Source: Bacilli bacterium (GTDB lineage Bacteria > Bacillota_I > Bacilli_A > RF39 > UBA660). Taken from it: 64,000 nucleotides of DNA. The notes beneath the pieces were generated by a model. That model was not told the DNA's origin and made no database searches. It saw only the letters and a list, made by a program, of their open reading frames with translations. A program made the position numbers and the translations under genes. Every line of letters starts with the position of its first letter. The first letter of the stretch is position 1. The stretch is taken from assembly GCA_051872635.1 (NCBI GenBank), contig JBJEEA010000009.1, positions 7,513-71,512 of the forward strand, in the 5' to 3' direction. This document shows positions 1-36,318 of the stretch, in pieces.

Positions 1-1126
1 TAATAATTTGTATTTATATCATCGTTTTCAAAATCAGTAACCATAACAAATCTATATAATACATCTGGAATATACATTTTATTCTTAAAATAATTCTTTT
101 CAATTAATTTCATAAAAGATTTATATAAATTCATAATATCATTACTATTTTCAAATACATAATCAATATATTGCAAATACTTAGCATTTTTCAGTATTAA
201 ATTAGCACACTCTGTTATAGTAAAATCATTTAATAGATGAATTACTATTAAAACATTTGATTTTGGAACTGTATTTTTAATACTATAATGTTTTAAACTA
301 TCTAAATAATTTTCTAATATTTTACAAAAATCATTAATTTCTTCATTACTTTTATTTTTTTTATAAAATTTCGCAATCCATTTATAATCAGAATAAACAG
401 ATAATTCTTCATTTAATAATATTTTATCTATTTCTGATTGTAATATTTTATTTTTATAAAGTTCTTCTATTTTTCTTTTTTCTCTAACATTTAAAATTTC
501 TTTATCAAAATCATTGTAATCATAATTATAATAACCTGTTAACTCTTGAACTTTTTTATTTAATTTATCTAAAAGCAAAAAATCTTGACTACTATTTTGT
601 AAATATTTTTTATAATCTTTTTCTAAATATAATTCAAATGTTCTCTTTTCATTATTTTTAAGTTCCGTTAACAAACATTCTTTTAATTGGTCTATACTTA
701 AATCATCAACATACATTTCTAATACTACATCAAAAAATAATGGTTTTTCAAAATTAGAAGATTCCCTATAATCATAATAATAATCATCGTCATAATATCT
801 ATCATATTTGTAGTAATCGTCTTCTTCGTCTTCATCATAATCACTATTTAACCATGATTCATAATCATCTACTTCATCAGGAAACAGTTCAAAATATAAT
901 GCAGTCATATGTTTACAAGTAATATTTCCATTTGCATGAGGACAATCACAATATGATTTTTTAGGATGTTCTATATCTATTTTTACATAATAAGGATTTT
1001 TTAAACTTCCATCAACATACCCTTCAAATTCATAATCATTTAATTGTTTTACATTGCTAACTTTATTATGTTTGTAATAGTCATAACCTCTACTAACAGA
1101 AGAACTACTTGCACTTGTAAGAATAC
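1..1126 (-). CDS. SWIM-type zinc-finger protein, N-terminal part; the gene continues past the left window edge. TTG start preceded by a GAGGTGG RBS.
   Basis: Reverse-strand translation reads L/MSILTSASSSSVSRGYDYYKHNKVSNVKQLNDYEFEGYVDGSLKNPYYVKIDIEHPKKSYCDCPHANGNITCKHMTALYFELF. This contains the CxC-x(n)-CxH SWIM motif, followed by a D/E/Y-rich acidic low-complexity stretch. It is absent from the ORF track because no stop codon falls inside the window. GAGGTGG lies 7 nt upstream of TTG at 1124-1126. Confidence 0.55.
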
Positions 1127-1151
1127 TCAATTTGTACCACCTCAAGTTATA

Positions 1152-2723
1152 TTATACACTATTATTGTTAAAAGTAACCTTAATATTTATAGTTTTATCT
1201 TCAAATATTTCAATTTTATCAATTAAATTAATTATTAGCTCCCTACTAGGATTTTTCATAGATAAAAATTTATTAATATATTCATTAATGATTTTATTTT
1301 TAAATTCTTCATTTATAGTATCATTAATAGCATTATTTAAATCATTATATCTTTTTTGCTTAATGTTTAGTTCACTTTCTAATTTGACCTTTACTCTTTC
1401 AAATTGTTCTTCAGTTATTTTTTTATTTAATTTATCAATATAAATAATATCTAAATTATCATTTATTTGTCTAATATCATCGGTAAGTATTTTTAACTCT
1501 TTTTTGTTATTGATTTTGTTATCTTCAGTTAAATTATTCAATACATTATTTTTAATTTTATCTTTATTAATATAATTTAAACACATTTCAGTCAAACAAT
1601 TGATTATTACTTTCTCTAATTCATCATAATTATTTGAATGAGTTGTACAAAGTTTTTGTTTTATGTAAGTTCGATAATAGTTACAAATAGTATAGCATCT
1701 ATTATCTTTTTTTCTCCTTGCTTGAACTGATATTCTATGACCACAATCACCACAATACAATAGTCCATCTAGTAAATGATTTTCTTTCTTTTCATTTCTT
1801 CCTACATTTTTAGGTATTCTTTTTTGCACTTCATAAAAAGTTTCTTTATTAATAATAGGTTCATGAGTATTTTCTACAATTATATAATCTTTAGGATTAT
1901 TTCTAACAACTTTTTTAACTTTATAATTTACTTTACTTCTTCTATTTTGTACCATATCGCCTATGTACATTTGATTAGTTAAGATATCCCTTATTGTTTT
2001 TGAATGCCACTGTCCATATTTTAAATTATAATTACTTTTCCATTCAAAACTATAATACCCTGCAGGAGTTTTTATTCCTTCATTAGTTAATTGTTTTGCT
2101 ATTTTATAAAATGATAAACCATCTAAACACATATCAAATATTCTTTTTACAACACTTGCTTGTCCTGCATTTTTTACTAAATGATTTTTGTTATCTGGAT
2201 CTTGCATATATCCAAATGGAGTTCTACCACCAACAAACTTACCTTCTTTTTGTTTAGCTTTTAAACTGGATTTAATCTTTTTAGAAATATCTTTAGCATA
2301 CATATCATTCATAATCGCCTTAAATGGTGCTATATCATTATTTGAACTATCTAAAAATGTATCTATATTATCAGTAACAGCAATATATCTAACATTATGT
2401 TCTGGAAAATATTTTTCTATTAAATTTCCAGTACCAATATAGTCTCTTCCAAGTCTAGACATATCTTTAGTAATTACCATATTAACTCTTCCTAATTCAA
2501 TATCATTTAATAATCTATTGAAATCAGGTCTATCAAAATTAGTTCCACTATATCCATCATCAATATAAATATCATAAACTCTTAAATTATTTTCTTTTAC
2601 ATATTGAAGTAATAAACTTTTTTGATTTGTAATACTTTCGCTCTCATATACTTTATCATCATCTTCACGAGATAATCTTATATAAATACCAACATTATAT
2701 ATCTTATTTATACTCCCTAACAA
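1152..2723 (-). CDS. Large serine recombinase (resolvase/invertase N-domain plus large C-terminal recombinase domain).
   Basis: 523 aa. N-terminal GIYIRLSRED catalytic-serine motif, then a long recombinase/zinc-ribbon region with a C-terminal coiled coil. Layout typical of phiC31/SpoIVCA-type large serine recombinases. Confidence 0.9.
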   Translation of the reverse strand: MLGSINKIYNVGIYIRLSREDDDKVYESESITNQKSLLLQYVKENNLRVYDIYIDDGYSGTNFDRPDFNRLLNDIELGRVNMVITKDMSRLGRDYIGTGNLIEKYFPEHNVRYIAVTDNIDTFLDSSNNDIAPFKAIMNDMYAKDISKKIKSSLKAKQKEGKFVGGRTPFGYMQDPDNKNHLVKNAGQASVVKRIFDMCLDGLSFYKIAKQLTNEGIKTPAGYYSFEWKSNYNLKYGQWHSKTIRDILTNQMYIGDMVQNRRSKVNYKVKKVVRNNPKDYIIVENTHEPIINKETFYEVQKRIPKNVGRNEKKENHLLDGLLYCGDCGHRISVQARRKKDNRCYTICNYYRTYIKQKLCTTHSNNYDELEKVIINCLTEMCLNYINKDKIKNNVLNNLTEDNKINNKKELKILTDDIRQINDNLDIIYIDKLNKKITEEQFERVKVKLESELNIKQKRYNDLNNAINDTINEEFKNKIINEYINKFLSMKNPSRELIINLIDKIEIFEDKTINIKVTFNNNSV

Positions 2724-2911
2724 TTCTTACCTCCTTCTAGAGATAAATAAGTACATGATGATGTTACCTCTCTTTTATCATTTTTACAAATCATCTGAAT
2801 ATATTTTTTTAATTCTTTATTTAAAACATTTATTAAGATATCATTTATATCTTTTTCATTATTAAAAATAAAATTTATTTTATACTTATCCATAAATTTT
2901 GTACACCTCAC
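2717..2911 (-). CDS. Small protein upstream of and overlapping the recombinase start. Likely start at ATG 2893 (MDKYK...) with a GAGGTG RBS. Possible regulator or recombination directionality factor.
   Basis: Small ORF of 58-64 aa depending on start. Overlaps the recombinase gene start by 7 nt. RBS GAGGTG lies 10 nt before the internal ATG. Function unknown. Confidence 0.35.
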   Translation of the reverse strand: MRCTKFMDKYKINFIFNNEKDINDILINVLNKELKKYIQMICKNDKREVTSSCTYLSLEGGKNC

Positions 2912-2939
2912 TTAAACTTATGGATAAATAACTATTTTT

Positions 2940-2990
2940 AGTAATACTAAATCGTGTAAATATTAAATTACACATTAATTTAGTATTACT
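2940..2990. repeat. 51-bp compound palindrome. Perfect 13-bp inverted repeat AGTAATACTAAAT / ATTTAGTATTACT flanking a 25-bp core that holds a second inverted repeat, GTGTAA / TTACAC.
   Basis: Read directly from the sequence. It lies about 30 bp upstream of the small ORF and recombinase operon start. Its size and architecture fit a serine-recombinase att site or an operator. Confidence 0.6.
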
Positions 2991-3304
2991 TATATACATT
3001 CACCTCTTTATAAATTTTCTTTTTAAAAATCATATACATCAACTCCTTTCACGATGCATGCTAGCTCATTAATTAATATTTGTCAAATCATATTTTGCTA
3101 ATATATTTATTTAATTATCCTAACTTTCATTAATTTCTATTAATTCTACAAAAGCAGGATAAGATGATGACCACATAATATAAAAAGAACCCTTATACAA
3201 TAAAGATTCATTATGGTGTCATTCCTATTTTGCACTTGCAAAATTCATCCTACTTTGTAGGTTGATATAAAGGAAAAACTCTTATTTTATAATATATTTA
3301 GGCA

Positions 3305-3352
3305 TTAAAAAACATCCTAGATTTAATAAATCTATTATTTTAGTAGGATGTT
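3305..3352 (-). terminator. Rho-independent terminator downstream of the fic gene.
   Basis: AACATCCTA ... TAGGATGTT 9-bp stem, followed on the minus strand by a T-run. Confidence 0.5.
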
Positions 3353-3360
3353 TAATTTTT

Positions 3361-4131
3361 TTAGTTATTTTCTTCTATTTCAAAATTTAGTAACTCTTCA
3401 CAAGTTTTTTTATATAAATCTTGTTCATGTTTAATAGTATCGATTAAGAACATTTTATCATTTTCATATTCTTTTAAACCTCTCATATAATAAGGTTTAT
3501 CATCATCTAATACAATAAAAGGCATAATGTTATTTCTTAAACATTCTTTAAACATTATAATTCTACCTACACGCCCATTTCCATCACCAAATGGATGTAT
3601 TCTTTCAAATCTAAAATGAAAATCAACTATATCTTCTAAAGTAATATTAGTTTTAGAATTATATTCATTTAATAATACTTTTATTTCTTTTTCTACATCT
3701 TCTGGTGCAGTGGTATTAATAACATTAACTACACCTATTATATTAGGAACAACTTTAAATCCCCCAACATTATATCTAAGATTTTCTTCATCACTAGTAT
3801 TTCTCTTTAAAATTTTATTCATTTCAATTATCATATCTTTAGTTAATAACTCATCAACATTATCTAACATATAATCAAATAATTTAAAATGGTTTTTAGA
3901 CTCTATTAAATCATCTAATTTAATTAAATCATCACTTTTAGGAATAAATGAAGATGTATCAAATATTGCTTCAGTTTGATCACTAGTTAATCTACTTCCC
4001 TCTATCTTATTTGAATTATAAGCAAAATTAACTTGTGAATAATAATATATATTACCCTTAAAATTAGACTCTTTTTGTTTAATTAATTCATTTTTAATCT
4101 TATTTATTTCCATAATCCAACTCACTTTCAT
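3361..4131 (-). CDS. fic: Fic/Doc-family protein (class II; inhibitory SxxxEG helix in cis).
   Basis: HPFGDGNGRVGR matches the Fic active-site motif HPFx(D/E)GNGRxxR. N-terminal SNKIEG matches the (S/T)xxxE(G/N) inhibitory motif. Confidence 0.85.
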   Translation of the reverse strand: MKVSWIMEINKIKNELIKQKESNFKGNIYYYSQVNFAYNSNKIEGSRLTSDQTEAIFDTSSFIPKSDDLIKLDDLIESKNHFKLFDYMLDNVDELLTKDMIIEMNKILKRNTSDEENLRYNVGGFKVVPNIIGVVNVINTTAPEDVEKEIKVLLNEYNSKTNITLEDIVDFHFRFERIHPFGDGNGRVGRIIMFKECLRNNIMPFIVLDDDKPYYMRGLKEYENDKMFLIDTIKHEQDLYKKTCEELLNFEIEENN

Positions 4132-4613
4132 TATATATTATTTGATAAAGAAATTGCCCATTTTAATAATTTATCATTTGCATCTTTTATTTCTTTGTCT
4201 ATAACATTCGAATCTTTTCTTTTACCATTTTTATAATAATAAATTTCCTTTGAAATAACATAATCATCAATGTTATCATTATACACCTTGTTAAACCCTT
4301 CGGGTAAATTATCAAAATTATAATTACTCTCAAACTTTATATAAACTGATGTATATATAGATGGCATAATAATATCATAATTACTTTTTTCTTGATTTAC
4401 TATATAACCAAGATCTTTAAATTCAAAATCATCATTGTTTTTTACATTATATAATTCATATAATCTAGGATCCTTTGCATGTCCAGAACAGCAATATTTC
4501 GTATAATATCCTTTTTTATTTAATATTGATATTGTTTGAGATATATCTTCATCTACTTCAAATACATTATCAACTATTTCAAAAGTTTCCTTATTTATAT
4601 ATTTATGATTCAT
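4131..4613 (-). CDS. Hypothetical protein, 160 aa, translationally coupled upstream of fic.
   Basis: ORF stop overlaps the fic start (ATGA arrangement). No recognisable motif. Confidence 0.5.
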   Translation of the reverse strand: MNHKYINKETFEIVDNVFEVDEDISQTISILNKKGYYTKYCCSGHAKDPRLYELYNVKNNDDFEFKDLGYIVNQEKSNYDIIMPSIYTSVYIKFESNYNFDNLPEGFNKVYNDNIDDYVISKEIYYYKNGKRKDSNVIDKEIKDANDKLLKWAISLSNNI

Positions 4614-4727
4614 AATTATCTCCTTTAAACACTACATTAATATTATACCACACAAAAAGACATTTCTTATCAAAATGCCTTTATTTATACTTATTTTATC
4701 TCAAATATTTTGGTCTATCATAAATTA

Positions 4728-4955
4728 TCACTCTTGTGGTACAGTATGATAAATATTTCTATAAACAACTCTTTCTCTAGGAGTCTCTACAACTGGAGAA
4801 GTAACTCCCCCCATTATAGGCCCTCCCATCATTGGTACACCAACATTATTATAATTCATATTAGTATTATCATTAACATTTTGATTAGTATTAGTTATAT
4901 TAATATCAATATCACCATCATACATACTTTGGTTAAAACCATCACTATAATTCAT
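4728..4955 (-). CDS. Hypothetical small N/G-rich protein (75 aa).
   Basis: ORF carries low-complexity N-rich and GG-rich segments. An overlapping plus-strand ORF also exists, so the coding strand is uncertain. Confidence 0.3.
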   Translation of the reverse strand: MNYSDGFNQSMYDGDIDINITNTNQNVNDNTNMNYNNVGVPMMGGPIMGGVTSPVVETPRERVVYRNIYHTVPQE

Positions 4956-5034
4956 AAATTATCCTCCTATCTACAATTATAATATGTGATTATCAAACAT
5001 GTAGATAGTAAAGAAGTCTAATTTTAAAATAAAA

Positions 5035-5460
5035 TTAATTATTCATATCATAATTCCATAGTCCAAGTTTCCCCCTACAAGGTATTGTCTTTTCATACTT
5101 AATAACATTTTCAAATTTCCAAGCATAATTTCTAGTATGCCCACTTGTCTCATATACTATTGGATTAATTTCTGAAAGTTTTCTATTAAAATCATCATTA
5201 ACCAAAATACAATCAGTCAAAGTAGCCTCACCAATAATAGCACCACTAGAATATTTTAAATCATATTCCTTAAATCTAGGTACATACTCTTCTTCTAAGC
5301 TCATTCCTGCATGTATTAATATCTTCCCTCTATAATTTGTCTTCCAACTTCTAAATTCATACATCTTGTAACCACTAATAATTAAAGTAGCCCAAGGTTC
5401 CTTAATAGTTAATACTTTCATTTTAATAACAACCTCAAAATGGCATTTTAAACTTACCAC
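5035..5460 (-). CDS. ASCH-domain protein.
   Basis: The pattern KEPWATLIISGYKMYEFRSW resembles the ASCH/PUA-like beta-barrel signature. Its start overlaps the ffh stop by 26 nt. Confidence 0.55.
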   Translation of the reverse strand: MVSLKCHFEVVIKMKVLTIKEPWATLIISGYKMYEFRSWKTNYRGKILIHAGMSLEEEYVPRFKEYDLKYSSGAIIGEATLTDCILVNDDFNRKLSEINPIVYETSGHTRNYAWKFENVIKYEKTIPCRGKLGLWNYDMNN

Positions 5461-6742
5461 TAGTCATCATTTTCATCATCTTTTTCATTTCCTCAAACTG
5501 ATTCAAAAGTTTATTTACTTCAGTTACTGTCGTACCAGACCCATCTGCTATTCGCTTCTTTCTACTAGCCTTAAGAATCTCAGGATGTCTTCTTTCTTCT
5601 AAAGTCATTGACAAAACAATTGCCTCTGTTCTTTTCATAATCTTAGGATCAATTTCTATATTATTAAGTCCCATCTTTTTTGCCCCAGGTAAAAGCTTTA
5701 GAATATTTTCAAGTGGTCCTAATTTTTTTATTTGCTTAAGCTGATCTAAAAAATCCTCTAAATCAAAATTTCCCTTCATCATCTTTTTGGCAGTTTTTTC
5801 AGCTTCTTTCTCATCAATCTCATTTTGTACTTGTTCAACTATTGATAAAATATCTCCCATTCCAAGAATTCTCGAAGCCATTCTCTCTGGATAAAAAGGC
5901 GTAAGACCATCCATCTTTTCAGAAATACCAATAAACTTAATAGGTAAATTAGTTAAATGTTTAACAGAAAGAGCAACACCACCTCTCGTATCACCATCCA
6001 TCTTAGTAAGTATTACACCACTAAGCTTAATTTTATCATTAAATCCTATAATTACATTAATAGCATCTTGTCCCATCATTGCATCAATAACCAAAATAGA
6101 TTCTTGAGGATTAACCCTATTTTGAATATTGGCAAGTTCTTCCATTAAGCTTTCATCTATTTGAAGTCTTCCAGCAGTATCAATAAGAACATAATCAAAA
6201 CCATTATCTTTAGCATATAAAACAGCATTATAAGATATTTCTACAGGATCTTTCTTCCCTTCTGAATATACTTCAATTCCAAGCTCTTTACCTATCTGCT
6301 TAAGCTGATCAATAGCAGCAGGCCTATATACATCACAAGCCACTAGTAAAGGTTTTTTCTTATTATTCTTTCTAAGATAATTAGCAAGTTTTCCAATAGT
6401 AGTAGTCTTACCACTACCTTGAAGACCTACTAACATAAGAATAGCGGGTTCCCCCTTTACATTAAGTGGACTATTTTCACCACCAAGTAAATTAGTAAGT
6501 TCATCCTTTACAATTTTTACAAACACCTCTCCTGGCGTAAGGCTTTTATTAACCTCTTCTCCAAGAGCTTTCTCTTTTACATTATTTGTAAACTCTTTTA
6601 CAACTTTATAATTAACATCAGCTTCAAGTAAAGAAAGCCTAATCTCTCTCATCATTTCACTAATATTATCTTCAGTTATTTTTCCATAACCCTTAATCTT
6701 ATGAACAACATTCTGCAATCTATCACTTAAATTTTCAAACAT
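5435..6742 (-). CDS. ffh: Signal recognition particle protein Ffh (SRP54).
   Basis: GLQGSGKTTT P-loop, DTAGR and TKMDGD GTPase motifs, and a Met-rich C-terminal M domain. Confidence 0.95.
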   Translation of the reverse strand: MFENLSDRLQNVVHKIKGYGKITEDNISEMMREIRLSLLEADVNYKVVKEFTNNVKEKALGEEVNKSLTPGEVFVKIVKDELTNLLGGENSPLNVKGEPAILMLVGLQGSGKTTTIGKLANYLRKNNKKKPLLVACDVYRPAAIDQLKQIGKELGIEVYSEGKKDPVEISYNAVLYAKDNGFDYVLIDTAGRLQIDESLMEELANIQNRVNPQESILVIDAMMGQDAINVIIGFNDKIKLSGVILTKMDGDTRGGVALSVKHLTNLPIKFIGISEKMDGLTPFYPERMASRILGMGDILSIVEQVQNEIDEKEAEKTAKKMMKGNFDLEDFLDQLKQIKKLGPLENILKLLPGAKKMGLNNIEIDPKIMKRTEAIVLSMTLEERRHPEILKASRKKRIADGSGTTVTEVNKLLNQFEEMKKMMKMMTSGKFKMPF

Positions 6743-6799
6743 AATTTATCACCTATTACTTATTATACATTATTTTTTTACTTTTTTATTAAAAAGTAG

Positions 6800-6828
6800 T
6801 TGATTTTTCCAAATAATTTTAATATAAT
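6800..6828 (+). promoter_or_regulatory. Sigma-70-type promoter for the tRNA-like gene.
   Basis: TTGATT, then a 17-nt spacer, then TATAAT, about 15 nt before the tRNA 5' end. Confidence 0.35.
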
Positions 6829-6843
6829 ATGTATATATCTAAT

Positions 6844-6918
6844 GCAGATGTGGTTCAACGATTAGAATTCGGCCTTGCCAAGGCTGAGACGGGGGTTTGA
6901 CTCCCCTCATCTGCTCCA
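6844..6918 (+). tRNA. tRNA-like gene of 75 nt with a cloverleaf fold. Anticodon loop TTGCCAA gives anticodon GCC (Gly-type), 3' CCA is encoded. The D-loop and T-loop (TTTGACT) are non-canonical. It serves as the prophage attachment target.
   Basis: Acceptor stem GCAGATG/CATCTGC, D-stem GTTC/GAAT, anticodon stem CGGCC/GGCTG, T-stem GGGGG/CCCCT, discriminator T, then CCA. Its last 17 nt are duplicated at the distal prophage end. Confidence 0.5.
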
Positions 6919-6919
6919 T
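6902..6919. repeat. attL core, TCCCCTCATCTGCTCCAT.
   Basis: 18-bp exact direct repeat of 43765..43782. It overlaps the tRNA 3' end. Confidence 0.8.
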
Positions 6920-6928
6920 ATGTAATTA

Positions 6929-6953
6929 AAGCCTTGTAAATCAAGGCTTTTTA
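6929..6953 (+). terminator. Phage-borne terminator downstream of the reconstituted tRNA.
   Basis: AAGCCTTG, loop taaat, CAAGGCTT, then TTT. Confidence 0.45.
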
Positions 6954-6969
6954 TAATTTTATAGTGTGC

Positions 6970-6990
6970 TTAGGTACATTTTAGGTACAT
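6970..6990. repeat. Tandem TTAGGTACAT TTAGGTACAT. Putative integrase arm-type binding sites (P' arm).
   Basis: The same tandem motif, TTAGGTACAC x2, appears at 43639..43659 immediately after the integrase gene. Confidence 0.55.
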
Positions 6991-7038
6991 AATTTGTATT
7001 TAATATTTATTAATTTTCCAGAGAAAGGAAGATTAATA

Positions 7039-7584
7039 ATGAATAACTACTGTATACACTTAAAGAAGAGAAAAAACAAACCATTCTGTAAGTTACTAGA
7101 TAAAGAAATAACATTTTCCCTATGTAGGGAATGTGATAATAAAGAATATAAAAAAAGTGATATCAAGATATCAAAAAAGTCCGGTTTTCGTTCTAAAAGT
7201 CCGGTTAAAAGCGGGCAAATGAATAAAAATGCACAATCATTGACAGAAAAGCCAGTTAAAAAAGCAAAAATGCACAATAAATCAAAGAAATTGACAAAAC
7301 TAGAAAGAAATAGATTTTCAATATTCACAACTAATAAAGATAAATGTATGTTCTGTCCTGCTACTACTAATTTAACATGGCACGAGATATATCGTGGTAA
7401 GAACAGACTTAATTCTATGATATATGGTTTTTGTTTAAGAATGTGTTTAAATTGTCATGACAAATATCAAGAAGATATTGAATTTAATGATTATTGGCAC
7501 AAACAGGCCCAATTATACTGGGAAGATAATATTGGCTCTAGAGATGAATTTATTAAGGTGTTTAGGAAGAATTATTTAGAATAA
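7039..7584 (+). CDS. NinG/Rap-like recombination-promoting nuclease (Cys-rich, HNH-like).
   Basis: N-terminal Cys pairs (CKLL...CREC), then CMFCPATTNLTWHEIYRGKNRLNSMIYGFCLRMCLNCH, then a C-terminal helical region. Pattern resembles lambda NinG. Start reassigned to ATG 7039 (MNNYCIHL) after a GAGAAAGGAAG RBS. Confidence 0.45.
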   Translation: MNNYCIHLKKRKNKPFCKLLDKEITFSLCRECDNKEYKKSDIKISKKSGFRSKSPVKSGQMNKNAQSLTEKPVKKAKMHNKSKKLTKLERNRFSIFTTNKDKCMFCPATTNLTWHEIYRGKNRLNSMIYGFCLRMCLNCHDKYQEDIEFNDYWHKQAQLYWEDNIGSRDEFIKVFRKNYLE

Positions 7585-7585
7585 A

Positions 7586-7607
7586 GAACTAGTGAATACT
7601 AGTTCTA
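7586..7607. terminator. Bidirectional hairpin between convergent genes.
   Basis: AGAACTAGT, loop gaat, ACTAGTTCT. Perfect 9-bp stem. Confidence 0.5.
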
Positions 7608-8012
7608 TTATATTGTTTCCAACAAAACTCTATGAAATTGCTTAAATTTATGTGTTTTTTTTGTATACTTTTTTATTTCTTTGTATAATTTAGTTTTACC
7701 TATATATATGTATATATCTTTCAAACCTTCTTTTTTATATTTTTCTATAATCTTTAATAATATTTGTTGATGATTATCTGTTATTTGTTCTATTTTTATA
7801 ATGCCATAATGTGGTTGCTTTCTTAATTCTTTATAATCGATGTCATAGGTAATTATACATTGCTTATTATTAACAGCATATTCAAACACTTCTTTATCTT
7901 TTATTCCTTTTTTATTATCGTTTATATGTTCTACATCATATCCATTTTCTTTTAATAACTTTTTTAACGAAACTGGTATATTTTCATCAAGTAAAAACTT
8001 CACACCTATCAC
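7608..8012 (-). CDS. DUF5615-like protein (PIN/Mut7-C-like). Putative toxin of a DUF433/DUF5615 pair.
   Basis: N-terminal FLLDENIP...GYDV.H......G..D.E.....V....C.ITYD.D pattern is typical of DUF5615/COG4634. Confidence 0.55.
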   Translation of the reverse strand: MIGVKFLLDENIPVSLKKLLKENGYDVEHINDNKKGIKDKEVFEYAVNNKQCIITYDIDYKELRKQPHYGIIKIEQITDNHQQILLKIIEKYKKEGLKDIYIYIGKTKLYKEIKKYTKKTHKFKQFHRVLLETI

Positions 8013-8459
8013 CTATTTAAAAAGAGTAAATATTGATTTATTTCCAATATAGTACATTAAACCTTTAAGTATTGTTTTATTTTTTTTGTTTTTTAATGAT
8101 GGATATTCTTCTTTAATATCATATATAAAAGTTTCTGAATCAAAAATGTTTTTTTCACATTTTTCAACAAAAAAATCATAAACAACTTTAACTGGAACCC
8201 TAGTTCCTTTAAAAACCACTTTGCCATTCATAATTTCTTTATTTTTACTTATTGTGTCTCTATAATCCAATTTTTTTAGTTTCTTTTGTAACATCCAAAA
8301 ATTGAAAAAATAAATAAGTTCATCAATAAAATTTGTTTTTTTAACTCTTGTTTTTTTAGATTCATCTTGAATAATTTCATGACCCCATTCCATAACTAAA
8401 TCAGGCATCATAATCAAATCACCATTCCTATCCTTACAATATAATTTCACATATCTCAC
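8013..8459 (-). CDS. DUF433-like protein (COG2442). Putative antitoxin partner; carries an N-terminal extension.
   Basis: C-terminal FKGTRVPV matches the GTR(I/V)PV DUF433 signature. The stop abuts the downstream DUF5615 start with a 0-nt gap. Confidence 0.55.
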   Translation of the reverse strand: MRYVKLYCKDRNGDLIMMPDLVMEWGHEIIQDESKKTRVKKTNFIDELIYFFNFWMLQKKLKKLDYRDTISKNKEIMNGKVVFKGTRVPVKVVYDFFVEKCEKNIFDSETFIYDIKEEYPSLKNKKNKTILKGLMYYIGNKSIFTLFK

Positions 8460-8544
8460 CTTATTAATATTATGTAAGAAAGTGTTATTTATTATTCTCT
8501 ACTCTATATTTCAATTATAGCATAAGTAAAACACCTGTGCAATA

Positions 8545-8577
8545 ATAAATTGCTTACTATGATATACTTTTTCTTAC
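8545..8577 (-). promoter_or_regulatory. Promoter of the DUF433/DUF5615 moron.
   Basis: On the minus strand: TTGACT, 17 nt, TATCAT. It overlaps a CTTTTT..AAAAAG inverted repeat. Confidence 0.3.
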
Positions 8578-8611
8578 AAAAAGTCAATACATTTCTAAAA
8601 AAGAAAAAAGA

Positions 8612-8650
8612 AGTAGACTACTGCCTACTCCTTTACTGTTCACATCTGTT
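8612..8650 (-). terminator. Terminator after the endolysin gene.
   Basis: On the minus strand: AGTAG gcagtagt CTACT, followed by TCTTTTTTCTTTTTT. Confidence 0.4.
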
Positions 8651-8662
8651 TGGTGGTATTCG

Positions 8663-9589
8663 CTACTCAATTACTATCTGAAATTTAGTAGCAGGTACTC
8701 CCATTACTCCAGCATAACCATCTTGACCATTTGTTTTTTCATTATCGTATTGCCAATCATAATTATTAACTTTGTATTTGGCTTTCTTGTATGGTCTTAT
8801 ATCATCTGGCGTATAATAATAAACTTCTACTGCATCAATAATATCTTTACCATTGCCAGCAAAGCCACTATTAAAGTCATTAATGTTATATCCAGTTACA
8901 TAAGGAAGCCAATCCTTACCTTTTAAATGTACCCTATATTTAATAGATCCTTTGTCTACTCTAATTGCTAAACCAGTTATAGGACTATTCTCCCATCCTG
9001 CATAATCTTCTAGATTCTTAACTTCTGGAAGCCATCCGTGTTTTTGCGTTTTAACTCTGTAATAAACATTAACATTTTTATCTGAGACTTGATTTTGGGT
9101 ACCATTAAGTTTCGTTTCAATCATTTTAATAAATCTATCCCAGCCCATATCTAAAGTCCTGTGAGGGCAATATTTATTGGCATAGTCTTGATGTTTAGTT
9201 ACTCTGTCTATTCCCCAATTATATCTTTTTAGAATATCCACTATTAAATCAACTGCATTTTGTTCGGCTTTAATAAATCTATCTCCACCACTTTTAGAAT
9301 AACATATTTCTATTGCTATTCCTTCTCTGTTACCTTTACCGTTGCCATCTCCAGCATGCCAAGCATTACGATTTTCTTCAATACCTTGTACTATCTCTTT
9401 ATCATCAACAGCATAGTGAAAAGATACTTCATTATTGTTATTTGTCATATATGCTATTTCACTTCTTGCAGAAGCATCATTAGCTGTATTATGTACTACA
9501 ATCCTTGTAGGTTTCATGCTATAAGGGCACTTTATTCCAAATTTATTTTTTGGTACTATTTGTTTTACTATATTTACCATATTAATCAC
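8663..9589 (-). CDS. Endolysin: N-acetylmuramoyl-L-alanine amidase (PGRP/Amidase_2 type) with a C-terminal cell-wall-binding region.
   Basis: N-terminal PGRP-like amidase pattern (H..A...A.....H.....N..S.G.......YCP) and an aromatic-rich C-terminal domain. Positioned next to a holin gene. Confidence 0.8.
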   Translation of the reverse strand: MINMVNIVKQIVPKNKFGIKCPYSMKPTRIVVHNTANDASARSEIAYMTNNNNEVSFHYAVDDKEIVQGIEENRNAWHAGDGNGKGNREGIAIEICYSKSGGDRFIKAEQNAVDLIVDILKRYNWGIDRVTKHQDYANKYCPHRTLDMGWDRFIKMIETKLNGTQNQVSDKNVNVYYRVKTQKHGWLPEVKNLEDYAGWENSPITGLAIRVDKGSIKYRVHLKGKDWLPYVTGYNINDFNSGFAGNGKDIIDAVEVYYYTPDDIRPYKKAKYKVNNYDWQYDNEKTNGQDGYAGVMGVPATKFQIVIE

Positions 9590-23964: not shown

Positions 23965-24120
23965 ACTAATCTTCATATTGTATGGGGTTTTCTTTTAAAT
24001 ATTCATCAATTTCCTTAGTTACTTGTTTTTGAAATTCTTCATCAATTTCTATTGGTTCATCAATGAACTCTTCTAATTCTCTATCATCAAACATCATTTC
24101 ATTTTCTTTCAATTCTTCCA
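23965..24120 (-). CDS. Possible small acidic protein of 51 aa.
   Basis: MEELKENEMMFDDRELEEFIDEPIEIDEEFQKQVTKEIDEYLKENPIQYED. Overlaps the 3' end of the minor head gene. Below the ORF-track size cut-off. Confidence 0.25.
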
Positions 24121-25718
24121 TAATTCCAACCAACTCTCTTACTAATTTCTTTATTAATCATATGAAGTGTTTCTTGCTTCTTTCCATACTTTTGAATATA
24201 TTTATTTCTTGTTATTTCATTGATTTTTTTTAAATCTTTGGACTTTACTTTATTTATACCATTTTTTTCTAAATAATACAAGTATTTATCAGTTTTTACT
24301 ATGATTGAGTTAATAGACTTATATTTATTGAATGTATCAATATCAGTAAATGAAAAACTTGAATTACTTGGATGATTATGAACCAACAATAAACTATTAT
24401 CTTTTGATTTAATTGACAACATAATAGGCTTAATGCCACCAACACTACTTTTTTTATTTTGATGAACTTCTAATAGTTTTTCTTTGGTATCTATATTATA
24501 TATAAATAAATGTTCTACTTCGTTATTCAAGTTTTTGAAATCTTTATCAATTATATTATCATTAAACATTTCAAAATTACTTTCATTACGAACTAAATCT
24601 TTCTCAATGTATTCTCTAGTATAATCTCTTTGAAGATTATTCTCTTCTAAAAATCTATTATAATTTTTGTTAAACATTTTTGTTTCAATACTTATCCTTT
24701 TTAATTCATCAGCATCATTTAATATTTTAGAAACTTCTCTTTGTCTTTTTAGACTACGAAGTTTTCTTTCATATTTCCTTTGTTCTTGAGATAATATATA
24801 GGTCTTTTCATTCTCTTCTTGGTCTACTCTTTCTGGGTGCTTTTCCCACTCAAAAGTAGGATAAAAAGTGTGCCTACAATTAACACCACAAAGCCCTAGC
24901 ATTTTACCATAGCCAGTTTTTTCATAAAAATTCTCATATTTATCACTTGAACCATTTAGCATATAAACTTTCCCTTGCCAATCAGCATGGACTTCAAAAT
25001 CTTCTTTAGTATATGGTGTTCGTATTCTGGCACCAAAATGTTGGGTAACATAAACTAAATTAGTTCCTAGTTGTTTAGCCTTTTCTATTTGTATATCTCC
25101 TGTTAGTTGATGAACTTTAGTAAGCACATCTCTTCTTACTGTGGATTCTAAGGATAATCTTTTACCATTTTTATATGTGGCACCAATAAATCCTTCTTTA
25201 GCCATCTTCTTTAAGCCTTGTTTTATAGCTTGGTCATATGAATAAACTCCACTAGATACCTTTATATATGCATCAGTTAATATTTTCATATAGCTTTCTT
25301 TCGCACTTTCTATCGCTTTTGTCTGTATTGTTTCCATCAAAGAGTTTGTTTCTTTTATGGAATTTTCTATAATATTCTGAACTGCTAAACTTTCATACAT
25401 TTGAGTTGGATTACTCAGCAATTGTTCATCATCAATGTAATCTTTATATTTGTCTAGCTTAGAAACATCATATCCTGCCAATTTTAGTATTCTTTTTACT
25501 TCGTTTTGAGATTTTCCAGCATACTTTGCTAATAATGCTAGATTTTCTTTATTAAATCCGCCTATTTCTTGTAACTTATCTAAATACCATTTCAATGAGC
25601 CTTCAATACCAGTATAGGTATTTAATCTAATTGCTATGTCTTTAATTAATTCTAATTCTAAATTATCATATATTTTTATTAAAGGTTTTATTAATACTTC
25701 AAGTTTGGCATCATCCAT
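24099..25718 (-). CDS. Minor head (head-morphogenesis) protein of the SPP1 gp7 / Mu F family, fused to a C-terminal RadC/JAB-like metallo-domain.
   Basis: The N-terminal ~300 aa carry the LGLCGVNCRHTFYP motif of the Mu F / gp7 family. The C-terminal ~200 aa contain LLLVHNHPSNSSFSFTD, which reads as a JAMM-like HxH-x6-S-xx-D motif close to RadC HNHPSGxxxPSxxD. Confidence 0.6.
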   Translation of the reverse strand: MDDAKLEVLIKPLIKIYDNLELELIKDIAIRLNTYTGIEGSLKWYLDKLQEIGGFNKENLALLAKYAGKSQNEVKRILKLAGYDVSKLDKYKDYIDDEQLLSNPTQMYESLAVQNIIENSIKETNSLMETIQTKAIESAKESYMKILTDAYIKVSSGVYSYDQAIKQGLKKMAKEGFIGATYKNGKRLSLESTVRRDVLTKVHQLTGDIQIEKAKQLGTNLVYVTQHFGARIRTPYTKEDFEVHADWQGKVYMLNGSSDKYENFYEKTGYGKMLGLCGVNCRHTFYPTFEWEKHPERVDQEENEKTYILSQEQRKYERKLRSLKRQREVSKILNDADELKRISIETKMFNKNYNRFLEENNLQRDYTREYIEKDLVRNESNFEMFNDNIIDKDFKNLNNEVEHLFIYNIDTKEKLLEVHQNKKSSVGGIKPIMLSIKSKDNSLLLVHNHPSNSSFSFTDIDTFNKYKSINSIIVKTDKYLYYLEKNGINKVKSKDLKKINEITRNKYIQKYGKKQETLHMINKEISKRVGWNYGRIERK

Positions 25719-27142: not shown

Positions 27143-28492
27143 TCATTTCTCTTCCAAATCTATAAATGGTAGTAATTGTTTAATATATTTCCAAACACCC
27201 ATTATTGCATATCTTTCAGCATCACAGCAGTGATCATATTCTTTTATGGGTTCCTCTCTACCTTTATCTAATAAATCCTCATTCCATTTATATTGATATC
27301 TTTCTTCGATTAGATGTTTTTGTTTAGGACTTAAAAATAATCTTTTAAATGACATCATCTTCTGCACTCTGTTTATTCCTAGCAAAACTGTGTTATTAGC
27401 ATTAAGTATTGATACTTCGGGACATATTCTTTTTATTTCTTCTGATAAACCTTTTGCAGAAGGATCTATAAAAACAAACTTTATTTGCTTGCTTGTTTCT
27501 TCTTCTATTCTATTTTTAAATATCTTAAAATCATTAGCATATTCTGATGGGCTTTTTTGCCTTCCACTTTCTCTACCGCTATGATAATATTCATCTATTC
27601 CTTGAACACATTTATTTATATAATCCAAACTAAAGCATTGAAAAGTAGTAGCATTCATCTGCCCATAGTCTACACCAATAAATAGCCAAGGAATACCTTT
27701 TAATATTTCTTCAGTTACCTCTCTTATATGTTTTTCTTTATCAAACATATAATAAATAACTTCATCTATTCCAGTACAAAGTCCTAACCAAATCCAGTTA
27801 TACATTTTTTCATCTAATTTTTTCAATAGTTCAGCTGTTTGAATCAGTTTTTTACCTAACCAATTAATTGGAACATCCCTATAATCTGTATGTATTCTTA
27901 TGCAATCTGGTCTTTGTACCATCTTTTCTACCCACTGCATTATAGGTGCTTTTGGATTCTGTGGCGGATTAAAATAATATTCCATACAGAATTCATCATC
28001 ATTTCCACGAACAAATGTTGCTTCTATATTGGTTAATTCATCTTCTCCATCACCTTTATCAAAAAATTCAGTTAATTCATCTAACTCTACTAACTTAATT
28101 GGTTTATTTTCATCAATCATACCTTTAGTATCATCTATACTATCATTACCAGTAAAATAGATAGTGTTGCCATTCTTTAAATACTTAATTTCCATTGGAC
28201 TAACAGTTATTTTAAAGTCTTTTTTATTAAGGCCTAATCTTGTAATAGCTCTTAAGCATTCTTTATATACAGTCTTCTTTAACTTATTATGAAACTTTCT
28301 CATAATAACAACAGAACAATTATCATCTTCTACTATCTTTTCAACAGCCTTTATTGCTCCTCTGCTAGATTTAGTTCCTGCTCTTCCAGAAGTAAATATT
28401 TTATGCATATACTTTGTATCATTAAAAGTAGAATGATATTTAGAAATTATCAAATCGCTTAATTTAATAATTTTTCTATTTTGGTAGATCAT
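27143..28492 (-). CDS. Terminase large subunit.
   Basis: N-terminal FTSGRAGTKSS Walker-A-like ATPase motif and a C-terminal nuclease-like acidic residue pattern. Lies adjacent to the small subunit. Confidence 0.8.
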   Translation of the reverse strand: MIYQNRKIIKLSDLIISKYHSTFNDTKYMHKIFTSGRAGTKSSRGAIKAVEKIVEDDNCSVVIMRKFHNKLKKTVYKECLRAITRLGLNKKDFKITVSPMEIKYLKNGNTIYFTGNDSIDDTKGMIDENKPIKLVELDELTEFFDKGDGEDELTNIEATFVRGNDDEFCMEYYFNPPQNPKAPIMQWVEKMVQRPDCIRIHTDYRDVPINWLGKKLIQTAELLKKLDEKMYNWIWLGLCTGIDEVIYYMFDKEKHIREVTEEILKGIPWLFIGVDYGQMNATTFQCFSLDYINKCVQGIDEYYHSGRESGRQKSPSEYANDFKIFKNRIEEETSKQIKFVFIDPSAKGLSEEIKRICPEVSILNANNTVLLGINRVQKMMSFKRLFLSPKQKHLIEERYQYKWNEDLLDKGREEPIKEYDHCCDAERYAIMGVWKYIKQLLPFIDLEEK

Positions 28493-34636: not shown

Positions 34637-35084
34637 AGTTTATACCTCCCTTTAATAATTCTATAACCTTAGCTCCTGCATTTTCTTTGGTAGTAAATAT
34701 AAATTCAACATTATATCTTTCAGACATAGTTTTCATTATTTTCATCAAAGTTTCACCTTTTACTTTTGTTCTTTTAGAGTTCCAATTGGGAACTTCCTCT
34801 ATTGACTTTATTTTTTGTTCTTTAATTAGAAAAATAAATCTTTCACAGCCAATTTCTCTGGCTCTTTCTATTTCTTTTTTTATTCTTTCATGTTCCTTTA
34901 AACTGGTTAAATTTCCACACATTTCTAAAAGATCCTTTTTTAGATCAATTAAAACACTTGTGCTATTAAGTAATTTTATATCTGCGGCATAAAGTTTATT
35001 GCGTATCCACTTTATGCCCTGCTTGTCTAAATATTCAGTTACATATTCATCTTTTTGATTTCTAGTATCCATTTCTATTATCAT
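34611..35084 (-). CDS. Putative PD-(D/E)xK-type nuclease, possibly a Holliday-junction resolvase.
   Basis: Start reassigned to ATG 35084 (MIIEMDTRN) after a GAGGT RBS. The pattern ..AADIKLL..VLIDLKK.. fits a D...(D/E)xK nuclease core. Positioned directly after the helicase gene. Confidence 0.3.
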   Translation of the reverse strand: MIIEMDTRNQKDEYVTEYLDKQGIKWIRNKLYAADIKLLNSTSVLIDLKKDLLEMCGNLTSLKEHERIKKEIERAREIGCERFIFLIKEQKIKSIEEVPNWNSKRTKVKGETLMKIMKTMSERYNVEFIFTTKENAGAKVIELLKGGINYDISEINF

Positions 35085-36318
35085 AATTATTAACCTCGTT
35101 AAATATTTGTTTAGTTTTATCGTATTCCATTTCAACATAACCAGTAACACCATCACGATTTTTAACAATTTCAACATTCATTTGATTAACCGATGTGATA
35201 TTATTCTTATCTTTTTCATCGCGATATAGTAATATAACCTTACTAGCACTATTTTCTAATTCCCCACTATCTTTTAACATTGCTAAACTGGGTCTTTCAC
35301 TTTGGTAAGCTCCTCTATTTAATTGGCTTGCAGATATAATAGTACAATCATATTCTAGACACATCTGTCTTAATTGTTTTGCAACTTCTGTTGCTTGTTC
35401 GTATAAACTTTTTGTATTATCTGCTCTTGTTAATCCAAGATGGTCTATAAATAATATCGTATGTCTATTTTTATCTTTCATTTTAATTAGTAAATTTTTT
35501 ATTTGTTTTATATCATTTGCTTTATGCTCTATCACAATTCCAGCATTTTCTATTTTATCAATAGCCTTTTCTATTAATTGCCTTTGATATTCACTTTGCG
35601 GGTTCAAAATATCATCAATCTTAATATTTGCTTCTATTGAAATAAGTCTTTTGTAAATTGTACTCTTACTCATTTCCATATTGAAATATATACACTGATA
35701 TCTTTCCATTAAATCAATCATAAGATTTAACATAAATCCTGATTTACCAGCACCAGTTGTTGCACCTATTATTAAAAAATCTCCTTGTACTAGTTTTAAG
35801 AAATTATTTAATTTATTAAATTTATTTAGTCTAATTTCAATATTTTCTATATTAATATTGGTAAGTAGTTCTTCCTTATCAACAGTATTTGATCCTCTAA
35901 TCAATTCAATATCATCTAACTGTCTCATCTTCTGAATGAACCCATCATAACTTATCTGTTTTCTTTCTAGTTTTTCATTCATTACCTTAACTAAATCTTC
36001 TTTATAAAATCTGACTATACTTTCTTCGCACACTTTTAACTGTTCTTTCCAAGCATTGTTATAATAAAAAGTATTTATCATTAAATCCATCATCCATTCA
36101 AAATTAATATCTTTATGCTTTTCATATATCTTCATCGGACTAACTACCTTATACTCCTCATAACATTCTTTACAATACTCAAACAACTTCTGATTTTTTG
36201 AATTGCTTAAATACTGTGGTCTTATCTGTGTGACATCAAATAATTCATTTTTATTTAATAACAAAGCCATATACTCATTTTCTATTTCTTCTCTATTATC
36301 AAGAGTTATTGCTAACAT
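35062..36318 (-). CDS. Replicative DNA helicase (DnaB-like).
   Basis: FLIIGATTGAGKSGFMLNLMIDL Walker A motif, HLGLTRADN, and a RecA-like C-terminal fold typical of DnaB family helicases. Confidence 0.75.
   Translation of the reverse strand: MLAITLDNREEIENEYMALLLNKNELFDVTQIRPQYLSNSKNQKLFEYCKECYEEYKVVSPMKIYEKHKDINFEWMMDLMINTFYYNNAWKEQLKVCEESIVRFYKEDLVKVMNEKLERKQISYDGFIQKMRQLDDIELIRGSNTVDKEELLTNINIENIEIRLNKFNKLNNFLKLVQGDFLIIGATTGAGKSGFMLNLMIDLMERYQCIYFNMEMSKSTIYKRLISIEANIKIDDILNPQSEYQRQLIEKAIDKIENAGIVIEHKANDIKQIKNLLIKMKDKNRHTILFIDHLGLTRADNTKSLYEQATEVAKQLRQMCLEYDCTIISASQLNRGAYQSERPSLAMLKDSGELENSASKVILLYRDEKDKNNITSVNQMNVEIVKNRDGVTGYVEMEYDKTKQIFNEVNNYDNRNGY

Follow-up and report, generated by a model that had tools for sequence, protein, structure and literature searches.

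Intervening Elements and the Locus

Elements that interrupt sporulation genes and are excised by a large serine recombinase include skin of Bacillus subtilis (recombinase SpoIVCA, gene sigK), SPbeta (SprA/SprB, spsM), gin of Bacillus cereus (GirC/GirX, gerE) and skin of Clostridioides difficile (PMC4191935, PMC5595907, PMC5025042). Directionality factors of such elements are small, SprB having 58 amino acids (aa) and GirX 42 aa, and gin is a non-phage element of 31 genes (PMC4191935, PMC5595907). The locus described here lies at the left end of a 64,000-nucleotide stretch of DNA from a Bacilli bacterium (GCA_051872635.1, contig JBJEEA010000009.1, positions 7,513 to 71,512 of the forward strand), and this whole stretch is called the window in what follows. 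Positions 1–4734 of the window are most of a 5,207-bp site-specific integrative element, and we give a probability of about 0.8 to this reading as a whole. The host is an uncultured gut bacterium of RF39 (CAG-302-like), and the element sits in its CotD-like gene of 116 aa. The family CAG-302 belongs to RF39 (PMC7676259), and spore formation in RF39 has been predicted from gene content (PMC10868615).

By analogy, the element fits the skin-type gene-intervening elements of spore-formers. As with skin, SPbeta and gin, the insertion lies in a small gene resembling a late mother-cell gene (CotD-like, with a CATAnnnTA box), both halves are intact, precise removal restores the open reading frame (ORF), and the large serine recombinase is encoded beside a tiny unannotated ORF, here of 58 aa; as in gin, the content is of non-phage type. 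On the other side, we infer the excision of the window's element, its host is an uncultured, reduced-genome member of RF39 for which sporulation is predicted, and the family carries a conserved Fic gene and has clear horizontal spread between species. The elements of the family, of 2.8–6.3 kb, are also far smaller than skin, which has 48 kb, and gin, which has 31 genes. No orthology of the recombinase to SpoIVCA, SprA or GirC is evident, SprA being its closest solved full-length relative. In the literature searched, no report was found of a cotD-like gene as the target of an intervening element.

Surveys of serine integrases define attachment (att) sites by comparing occupied with empty genomes. 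Like the elements surveyed in that way, the family has mapped attL and attR, an empty attB, a symmetric attP of about 50 bp and one recombinase near one end, but it matched no catalogued entry here, its cargo is very small and its target is one codon across species. The clostridial elements Tn4451/Tn4453 (TnpX) and the staphylococcal cassette chromosome (SCC, CcrAB) are likewise of non-phage type and depend on large serine recombinases for their movement, and they too are small, from a few kb up to tens of kb. Unlike Tn4451/Tn4453, the window's element has no Mob/TnpZ-like gene; unlike SCC, it has one recombinase and not a CcrA/CcrB pair; and unlike both, its target is a strict single site inside a gene.

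Extent of the Element and Empty Sites

The left end was reached with L001, a 16.4-kb assembly contig that holds the exact recombinase protein and is 100% identical to window 1–9020, so that 7.4 kb are added on the left. Coordinates with a minus sign lie left of the window start and are taken from this contig. A scan with Ffh as the query, restricted to one genome per species, gave 80 loci from uncultured Bacilli, and the closest of them by Ffh (91% identity) include Clostridium sp. CAG:302, which is the nearest named relative of the host.

The genes of window 1–5035 are all on the minus strand, in the order SWIM gene, recombinase, p58 (the 58-aa ORF), a spacer of about 450 bp, Fic, a 160-aa ORF and an asparagine/glycine-rich (N/G-rich) ORF, to the right of which an ASCH gene and then ffh are found. 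Leftward past the SWIM gene, L001 continues with attR, the 3′ fragment of the split gene, a 981-aa SpaA/sortase protein, cdaA and ybbR. In the closest relatives, ffh, the ASCH gene and the N/G-rich gene are followed directly by the SpaA/sortase gene and cdaA, which constitutes the empty site, with one continuous ORF of 115–118 aa. The homology of L001 to three such loci (L003, L004 and L005) stops at 4286 of the contig and restarts at 9494; in each empty site, the two homologous segments share 2 bp, which puts the insertion at 5,207 bp, from 4734 to about −472 in window coordinates. What sets the occupied site apart from the empty one is exactly the element, and attL and attR are hybrids, as is expected for integration by a large serine recombinase. 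The G+C content is 20–23% in 1–5000, compared to about 31% in 5001–7000. The junctions and the two gene fragments are located as follows.

4737–4955, minus strand: 5′ fragment of the split CotD-like gene, 73 codons; intact orthologues in L003, L004 and L005
4735–4736, minus strand: probable crossover dinucleotide CA (TG on the plus strand), deduced from the 2-bp overlap of the empty-site homology blocks
4711–4734, minus strand: P′ arm of attL, the element-side half-site, AGAGTGATAATTTATGATAGACCA on the gene strand; kept in all copies
−472 to −449: P arm of attR, after the SWIM gene, left of the window
−604 to −473: 3′ fragment of the split gene, 43 codons, just past attR, outside the window

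A preliminary description had taken window 1–5035 for a second, mobile-looking block, with a large serine recombinase and distinct from the tyrosine-integrase prophage, a view that it would have given up if related genomes had the same genes at the same place, with neither empty-site variants nor a second att-like sequence. The mapped junctions and the Pfam domains bear it out: the block is a mobile element separate from that prophage (integrase 42492–43625), with the large serine recombinase as its driver, and empty sites do exist in the three relatives. The genes listed for the block are all present; its limits had to be moved from 5035 to 4734/4735–4736 at one end, and to about 472 bp left of the window at the other. 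The SNF2 helicase gene that was considered possible just left of the window is missing from the 7.4 kb available on that side, and attR, the 3′ gene fragment and the SpaA/sortase gene stand there instead.

A prophage or conjugative element that continues to the left, with the block as its decayed end, is very improbable. Phages and conjugative elements are the usual carriers of large serine recombinases, and the window already contains one prophage, but both ends are mapped and the whole element is of 5.2 kb. Moreover, no relaxase, conjugation, phage structural or phage replication domain was found in the core or cargo proteins of any copy, and the phage and plasmid records match only short segments of Fic or of the recombinase. 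The mapped attR excludes such a remainder for the window's copy; the element may have a phage ancestry.

Element Family and Mobility

The element has close relatives in other hosts. In many more distant species (Ffh 74–77% identical), a Fic protein with 86–95% identity and a recombinase with 79–91% identity, together with p58, are encoded downstream of ffh. Nine complete copies of 2.8–6.3 kb were found in other RF39 species; they interrupt the gene at the codon used in the window and point the same way, as do more than ten partial ones. Their core usually consists of Fic, p58 and the recombinase, and a cargo slot with variable content lies on either side of it; one copy of 2.8 kb (L052) is the core only, and another (L086) is without Fic. 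The slot between attL and Fic can hold the 160-aa ORF, GNAT acetyltransferases, an ASCH fusion, an MA-type peptidase or other genes, and the one between the recombinase and attR holds the SWIM gene (4 copies), NERD plus a zinc-ribbon protein (2) or MazE/MazF (2).

The pairwise identity of the recombinase does not follow that of the host Ffh (Spearman −0.06), and in 20 of 28 pairs the recombinases are closer to each other than the Ffh proteins. As the two identities are unrelated, the element moves between species, and on these sequence comparisons the family spreads horizontally.

The same set of copies bears on whether the recombinase could be an invertase that flips a segment between inverted repeats, such as the arms of the palindrome described below, in order to switch Fic or SWIM. 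Inverted repeats are frequent in the block and serine recombinases include invertases, but the gene order and the orientation relative to the host gene are shared by all of the at least 20 copies, which excludes an invertible switch. Besides, the long-range inverted repeats are only 70–80% matched and AT-rich, the recombinase has the domains of a large serine recombinase of the integrase type, and the clean pairs of insertion and empty site account for the data. We give almost no chance to this alternative.

Several variants were observed beside the main family. In a second recombinase lineage (L017, 11379–16848), the recombinase has 506 aa and 53% identity, an upstream ORF encodes 114 aa and the cargo is a P-type ATPase of 874 aa. 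This lineage interrupts the CotD-like gene as well, three codons farther towards its 3′ end (...HEVPHVC|), so that the same short stretch serves two integrase families as a target. Two loci (L088, 3066–6480, and L085, 2541–11500) contain the P′ arm and Fic with neither p58 nor recombinase and look decayed or trapped; L088 is joined to a flank other than the CotD-like gene and holds a 70-aa SWIM fragment. In a variant of at least 9.7 kb (L006, 1894–11603), eight genes replace Fic between attL and p58-recombinase. By a reading of their sequences, these genes look like those for a pyridoxal phosphate-dependent decarboxylase, a cysteine synthase, ATP-grasp enzymes, an arginase, a KamA-like radical SAM enzyme and an RsgA-like GTPase.

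Attachment Sites and Crossover

When the junctions of all copies are aligned, attL reads host ...CCA, then CA and AGAGTGATAATTTATGATAGAC, while attR reads ATCTATCAAAAAAGGGCAAGGA, then CA and host TGTTTG.... The attP rebuilt from them, AATCTATCAAAAAAGGGCAAGGACAAGAGTGATAATTTATGATAGAC, has the form TCTATCA-N14-CA-N14-TGATAGA. It is symmetric around CA, this being the symmetry centre in 9 copies; with the sequence of L001 alone, AC is also compatible as the crossover. A symmetric attP of this kind is the architecture expected for a large serine recombinase. The attB comprises about 50 bp around ...ACTGTACCACATGTTTGCCC... inside the host gene. The recombinase would have joined the symmetric attP to this attB within the gene, with the crossover at CA.

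The P′ arm of attL brings a TGA stop two codons beyond the junction, and the listed 75-aa N/G-rich ORF (4728–4955) is the 5′ fragment plus Q-E-stop from the element. A scan of metagenome contigs with the exact pattern of the P′ arm gave 12 matches, 11 of which adjoin the 5′ fragment of a related gene ending in ...YHEVP; the other match is at a different site that has no recombinase. The P′ arm alone had 0 matches in viral contigs.

The Interrupted Gene

The gene is split between codon 73 (...YHTVP) and codon 74 (HVCPIN...). In the empty sites, the N/G-rich ORF runs 43 codons further and ends in a Cys-rich tail. What had been listed as a small N/G-rich cargo protein is then the truncated 5′ half of a host CotD-like gene. 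The only family matched by the intact protein is the Pfam family Spore-coat_CotD, which is found at E ≤ 0.01 in 11 of 20 relatives (best 3.7e-5), and some of the 2,611 database relatives of the intact protein carry PF11122 (Spore-coat_CotD). Upstream of the gene there is a promoter element:

4978–4986, minus strand: −10 box CATATTATA of the CotD-like gene, CATAnnnTA, sigma-K/E type

The mother-cell sigma factor K has CATAnnnTA as its −10 consensus, and the consensus of sigma E is close to it. Of 44 orthologous regions, 32 have the exact form of CATAnnnTA at 26–33 nucleotides (nt) from the ATG, on its upstream side, compared to 1.3% of background windows, and all 44, occupied alleles included, have a relaxed form. 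A further box, T(A/G)G(G/A)C, was observed at window 5016–5022 and in the orthologous loci, exactly 33 nt upstream of CATAnnnTA in most genomes. Its distance is too great for a −35 element, and an activator may bind there; where the ASCH gene is lacking, the box overlaps the stop codon of ffh.

The intact CotD-like genes are under purifying selection, with a median omega of 0.19. The 3′ fragments all keep the frame and a normal stop, and their omega (0.0–0.34) is within the range of the intact genes. A damaged 3′ fragment is found in none of the nine complete copies, and the promoter and the ribosome-binding site are retained in all six that were checked. The gene carries an insertion in about 16 of about 49 assessable species representatives. 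The CotD matches, the CATAnnnTA box and the spore formation predicted for RF39 are coherent with a role of the split gene in the spore coat, without being proof of it.

The Recombinase and p58

The two genes that would act on the attachment sites overlap each other:

1152–2723, minus strand: large serine recombinase, 523 aa, TTG start behind GGAGGT
2717–2893, minus strand: p58, 58-aa ORF from ATG; its end overlaps the ribosome-binding site and start of the recombinase

The recombinase has the three parts of an integrase-type large serine recombinase, that is, a catalytic domain, a recombinase domain and a zinc ribbon, and its size is within the range of about 450–700 aa of such proteins, with all its Pfam matches above the cut-off (Resolvase 13–162, Recombinase 188–305, Zn_ribbon_recom 317–375) and a Y-I-R-L-S motif near the N-terminus. 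Among full-length solved relatives, the best is SprA/YokA of SPbeta (E 6e-26, matching residues 8–489), and the best match by E-value in the Protein Data Bank (PDB) is the catalytic domain of TnpX (7e-27). Phage recombinases have at most 34% identity to it, and CcrB is a weak NCBIfam match, NCBIfam scores being of 113 bits against a cut-off of 900. The gene is intact in 10 copies. The low omega of the recombinase (0.13) and of Fic (0.10) indicates that these genes are functional.

The small ORF directly upstream had already been noticed, and it does travel with the recombinase, which it accompanies in 11 copies. Its omega of 0.40 points to purifying selection. Public data contain 283 clusters of p58, all of about 58 aa and unannotated, which means that the element family is common in gut metagenomes. 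No Pfam, NCBIfam or PADLOC family and no phage or defence match was found for p58, and no relatives were detected outside the element family. Its position, size and co-inheritance, together with the analogy to SprB and GirX, make it a candidate recombination directionality factor.

The Leader Region and the Palindrome

Between Fic and p58 several structured sequences are found:

2883–2930, minus strand: hairpin 2, TTATCCATAA...TTATGGATAA, both arms invariant in 10 of 10 aligned copies
2940–2990, minus strand: 51-bp compound palindrome (hairpin 1), in the leader/promoter region of p58-recombinase
3058–3086, minus strand: sigma-70-like promoter candidate TTGACA-17-TAGCAT, upstream of the p58 leader, consensus match only
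3310–3353, minus strand: hairpin and T-run after Fic, likely a terminator, with 10-bp perfect arms and then TTTTTTAATG on the gene strand

The palindrome has 13-bp perfect arms, a 25-bp spacer and an inner 6-bp inverted repeat. Taken alone, it is barely beyond chance, a perfect 13-bp inverted repeat within 30 nt appearing in 14 of 300 shuffles. It is kept in 8 of 10 copies, L052 and L056 having one arm only. Five changes in the 13-bp outer stem affect one side only, and on the sense strand they lead to a G.U pair in four cases and to U.U in the other, with 0 compensatory pairs; an RNA structure is only weakly favoured over a DNA operator. Hairpin 2 is predicted, by consensus and single-sequence folds, to enclose the ribosome-binding site of p58 and to pair with its ATG. 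The 125-nt leader, with palindrome and hairpin 2, folds with z = −6.6. TTGACA plus (G/T/A)CATG is aligned in 6 of 10 copies. On the other side of the spacer, the hairpin at 3310–3353 likely separates Fic from the p58-recombinase unit, and a similar hairpin with T-run is placed 3′ of Fic in L042, L052, L056 and L077.

We propose that the palindrome and hairpin 2, which would bury the start codon of p58, regulate the expression of p58 and the recombinase. The leader hairpins may thereby set whether the recombinase acts alone, for integration, or with p58, for excision. Two very short ORFs (15 and 37 codons) with good ribosome-binding sites were noticed by eye in the p58 leader (window 2996–3056, minus strand), the second of which runs through the palindrome.

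In the preliminary description, the palindrome was taken for an att site, SWIM for the controlled or flanking gene, with an SNF2 partner, and Fic, the 160-aa ORF and the N/G-rich protein for cargo. The palindrome is real, at the place given and roughly of att-site size, and the stop codon of the recombinase is indeed in frame with the SWIM start, 24 nt upstream of its TTG, a fact that has no visible meaning. But the palindrome is internal and coincides with none of attL, attR and attP: the mapped junction is 1.7 kb away, neither another copy nor a half-site was found in the window or its leftward extension, and two otherwise complete copies do not have it as a palindrome. The SWIM gene is in just 4 of the 9 complete copies, SNF2 is found neither in the 7.4 kb to the left nor beside distant SWIM homologues, and the N/G-rich ORF belongs to the host gene. 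The mapped junctions refute this arrangement, and we consider its chances close to negligible. The idea of a skin-like, recombinase-controlled gene was right in spirit, with a CotD-like gene and not SWIM as the one interrupted.

Excision and Sporulation

The anatomy of an intervening element is present here: the insertion is in a coding sequence, both fragments are intact and precise removal restores the ORF. With p58 as directionality factor, the recombinase would excise the element precisely and rejoin the gene halves, and we think that the pair can probably do so. For two other copies, intact genes that encode exactly the rejoined protein are present on other contigs, 47 for L019 and 1 for L077, which means that split and intact alleles of an identical protein coexist. 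By analogy with skin, SPbeta and gin, the excision might be tied to sporulation in the mother cell, a proposal that we make tentatively and with the odds somewhat against it. Still more doubtful is a complete scheme in which Fic, p58 and the recombinase form a natural minimal switch for genome rearrangement that excises in the sporulating mother cell and thereby rebuilds a spore-coat gene. In this scheme, the hairpin over the p58 start codon would gate the direction, the recombinase integrating when alone and excising when accompanied by p58, and Fic would not be a random passenger but a part of the element's life cycle that penalises loss of the element or defends the host.

Several observations weigh against excision as a programmed event, or against the identities on which it is built. 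The attP junction pattern had 0 matches in viral contigs and 0 in metagenome contigs, whereas a control pattern gave 12 integrated copies; hence, excision is something that we infer and not an observed event. The rejoined protein of the window's own copy had no match in the protein collection. No transfer genes were found in the element, and no plasmid or phage record holds it. The CotD match of the closest intact orthologue is weak (E 0.0064, 17.4 bits against a curated cut-off of 22), and the low omega of the gene fragments also fits a recent insertion instead of continued function. No similarity of p58 to a known directionality factor could be detected, and the AlphaFold2 (AF2) model of p58 is poor (pLDDT 64), with a single helix at residues 16–38. 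A sigma-K/E promoter was sought before p58-recombinase, and the sole match was the sigma-70-like one. The spore formation of the lineage is a gene-content prediction only, and a scan of 10 host proteins in the window, uninformative in itself, gave no sporulation domains.

The same integrative element could have no developmental role at all, being a selfish or defence-carrying insertion that knocks out a dispensable gene, at a site chosen for its sequence conservation, with excision for transfer only, if at all. We give this possibility nearly an even chance. It agrees with the failure to find attP or an excised form, with the defence- or addiction-type cargo (Fic/PDC-S04, MazEF, NERD), with the sigma-70-like promoter before p58, with decayed copies that have lost the recombinase (L085, L088) and with the region downstream of ffh being a general hot spot for variable genes. 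It accounts less well for an insertion in about a third of the species representatives in a gene under purifying selection, for 3′ fragments undamaged in all nine complete copies with promoter and ribosome-binding site kept in the six checked, and for alleles of identical protein that are both split and intact. Neither would it lead one to expect that two recombinase lineages converge on the same few codons, or that the pattern is like that of known mother-cell gene interruptions.

Fic, SWIM and Other Cargo

The remaining genes of the element are the following:

3361–4113, minus strand: class II Fic protein, 250 aa from ATG 4113 (256 aa from the upstream ATG 4131)
4131–4613, minus strand: 160-aa ORF in cargo slot A (attL–Fic), a singleton cluster among the element copies
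1–1130, minus strand: SWIM-like protein in cargo slot B (recombinase–attR), 526 aa, from TTG 1130 behind GAGGTGG

The Fic protein was correctly assigned to class II from the start. Besides the Pfam Fic match, it has in the same chain the active site HPFx(D/E)GNGRxxR, as HPFGDGNGRVGR at residue 179, and an N-terminal inhibitory motif (S/T)xxxE(G/N), as SNKIEG at residue 40, and both motifs are present in all 13 copies. In PADLOC, it has a full-length match to PDC-S04, a candidate defence family (E 1e-98), and a partial one to SoFic (E 2e-19). Like these families, it has an intact active site and an intramolecular inhibitory motif; unlike PDC-S04, it is a fixed passenger of a recombinase element and not free-standing in a defence island. 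The 160-aa ORF had been proposed as a coupled partner of Fic, but it is unique to the window's copy and, being a singleton, it is not a conserved partner; no family match was found for it in Pfam, NCBIfam or PADLOC.

The SWIM ORF starts at its TTG and runs off the window, as first described; the window holds its first 376 codons, and about 450 bp more lie to the left. Its domain assignment stands on a weak Pfam match (SWIM, PF04434, E 0.039, 13.9 bits against a cut-off of 19.6) and on the NCBI name of an identical protein, 'SWIM zinc finger domain-containing'. Pfam, NCBIfam and PADLOC gave no significant family match for it. Two homologues carry PF04434, and the motif C61-x-C63-x8-C72-x-H74 is invariant in 26 homologues. 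The AF2 model (pLDDT 86) consists of a beta/zinc module, an acidic disordered stretch (residues 96–124) and a long alpha-solenoid; it gave no significant PDB fold match, the top one being ZSWIM8 (E 0.027). The omega of the gene is 0.19. SWIM homologues of 43–48% identity are found among restriction-modification, Hachiman, RnlAB and RloB/AAA genes, with no recombinase and no SNF2 adjoining.

Significance

The analysis defines a compact set formed by attL, attR, a rebuilt attP and attB, the recombinase, a candidate directionality factor and a natural minimal version of 2.8 kb. Compact sets of site-specific serine integrases are sought as genome-engineering tools. If the excision is developmental, the paradigm of skin, SPbeta and gin would reach uncultured RF39 gut bacteria, and the split gene, the sigma-K/E-like promoter and the element would become markers for sporulation in RF39, for which a true mother-cell switch would be direct genomic evidence. 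In addition, a defence-type Fic, with toxin-antitoxin, NERD and SWIM cargo, spreads between species on a very small element that has no visible transfer genes.

Other Features of the Region

Immediately downstream of ffh (window 5035–5460), the ASCH gene overlaps the end of ffh, and this region varies between species. At the corresponding place of another genome (L098, 5585–11400), a methyltransferase, a SWIM homologue, a tyrosine-integrase fragment and RloB/AAA_15 genes were observed. Near ffh in the window (7608–8459), a DUF5615/PIN-like gene (7608–8012) and an upstream gene of 148 aa annotated as DUF433 are likely a toxin-antitoxin pair.

The genes of the separate prophage are found in window 8600–43700, with an amidase (8663–9589), a minor capsid protein (24099–25718), a large terminase (27143–28492), a DnaB-like helicase (35062–36318) and the tyrosine integrase already mentioned. 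Farther right, at 56897–59617, a 906-aa protein has a MurD-like N-terminal domain (8–96) and a second Mur_ligase catalytic domain (456–555), besides two middle and two C-terminal Mur stretches, so that it looks like a fusion of two peptidoglycan ligases.

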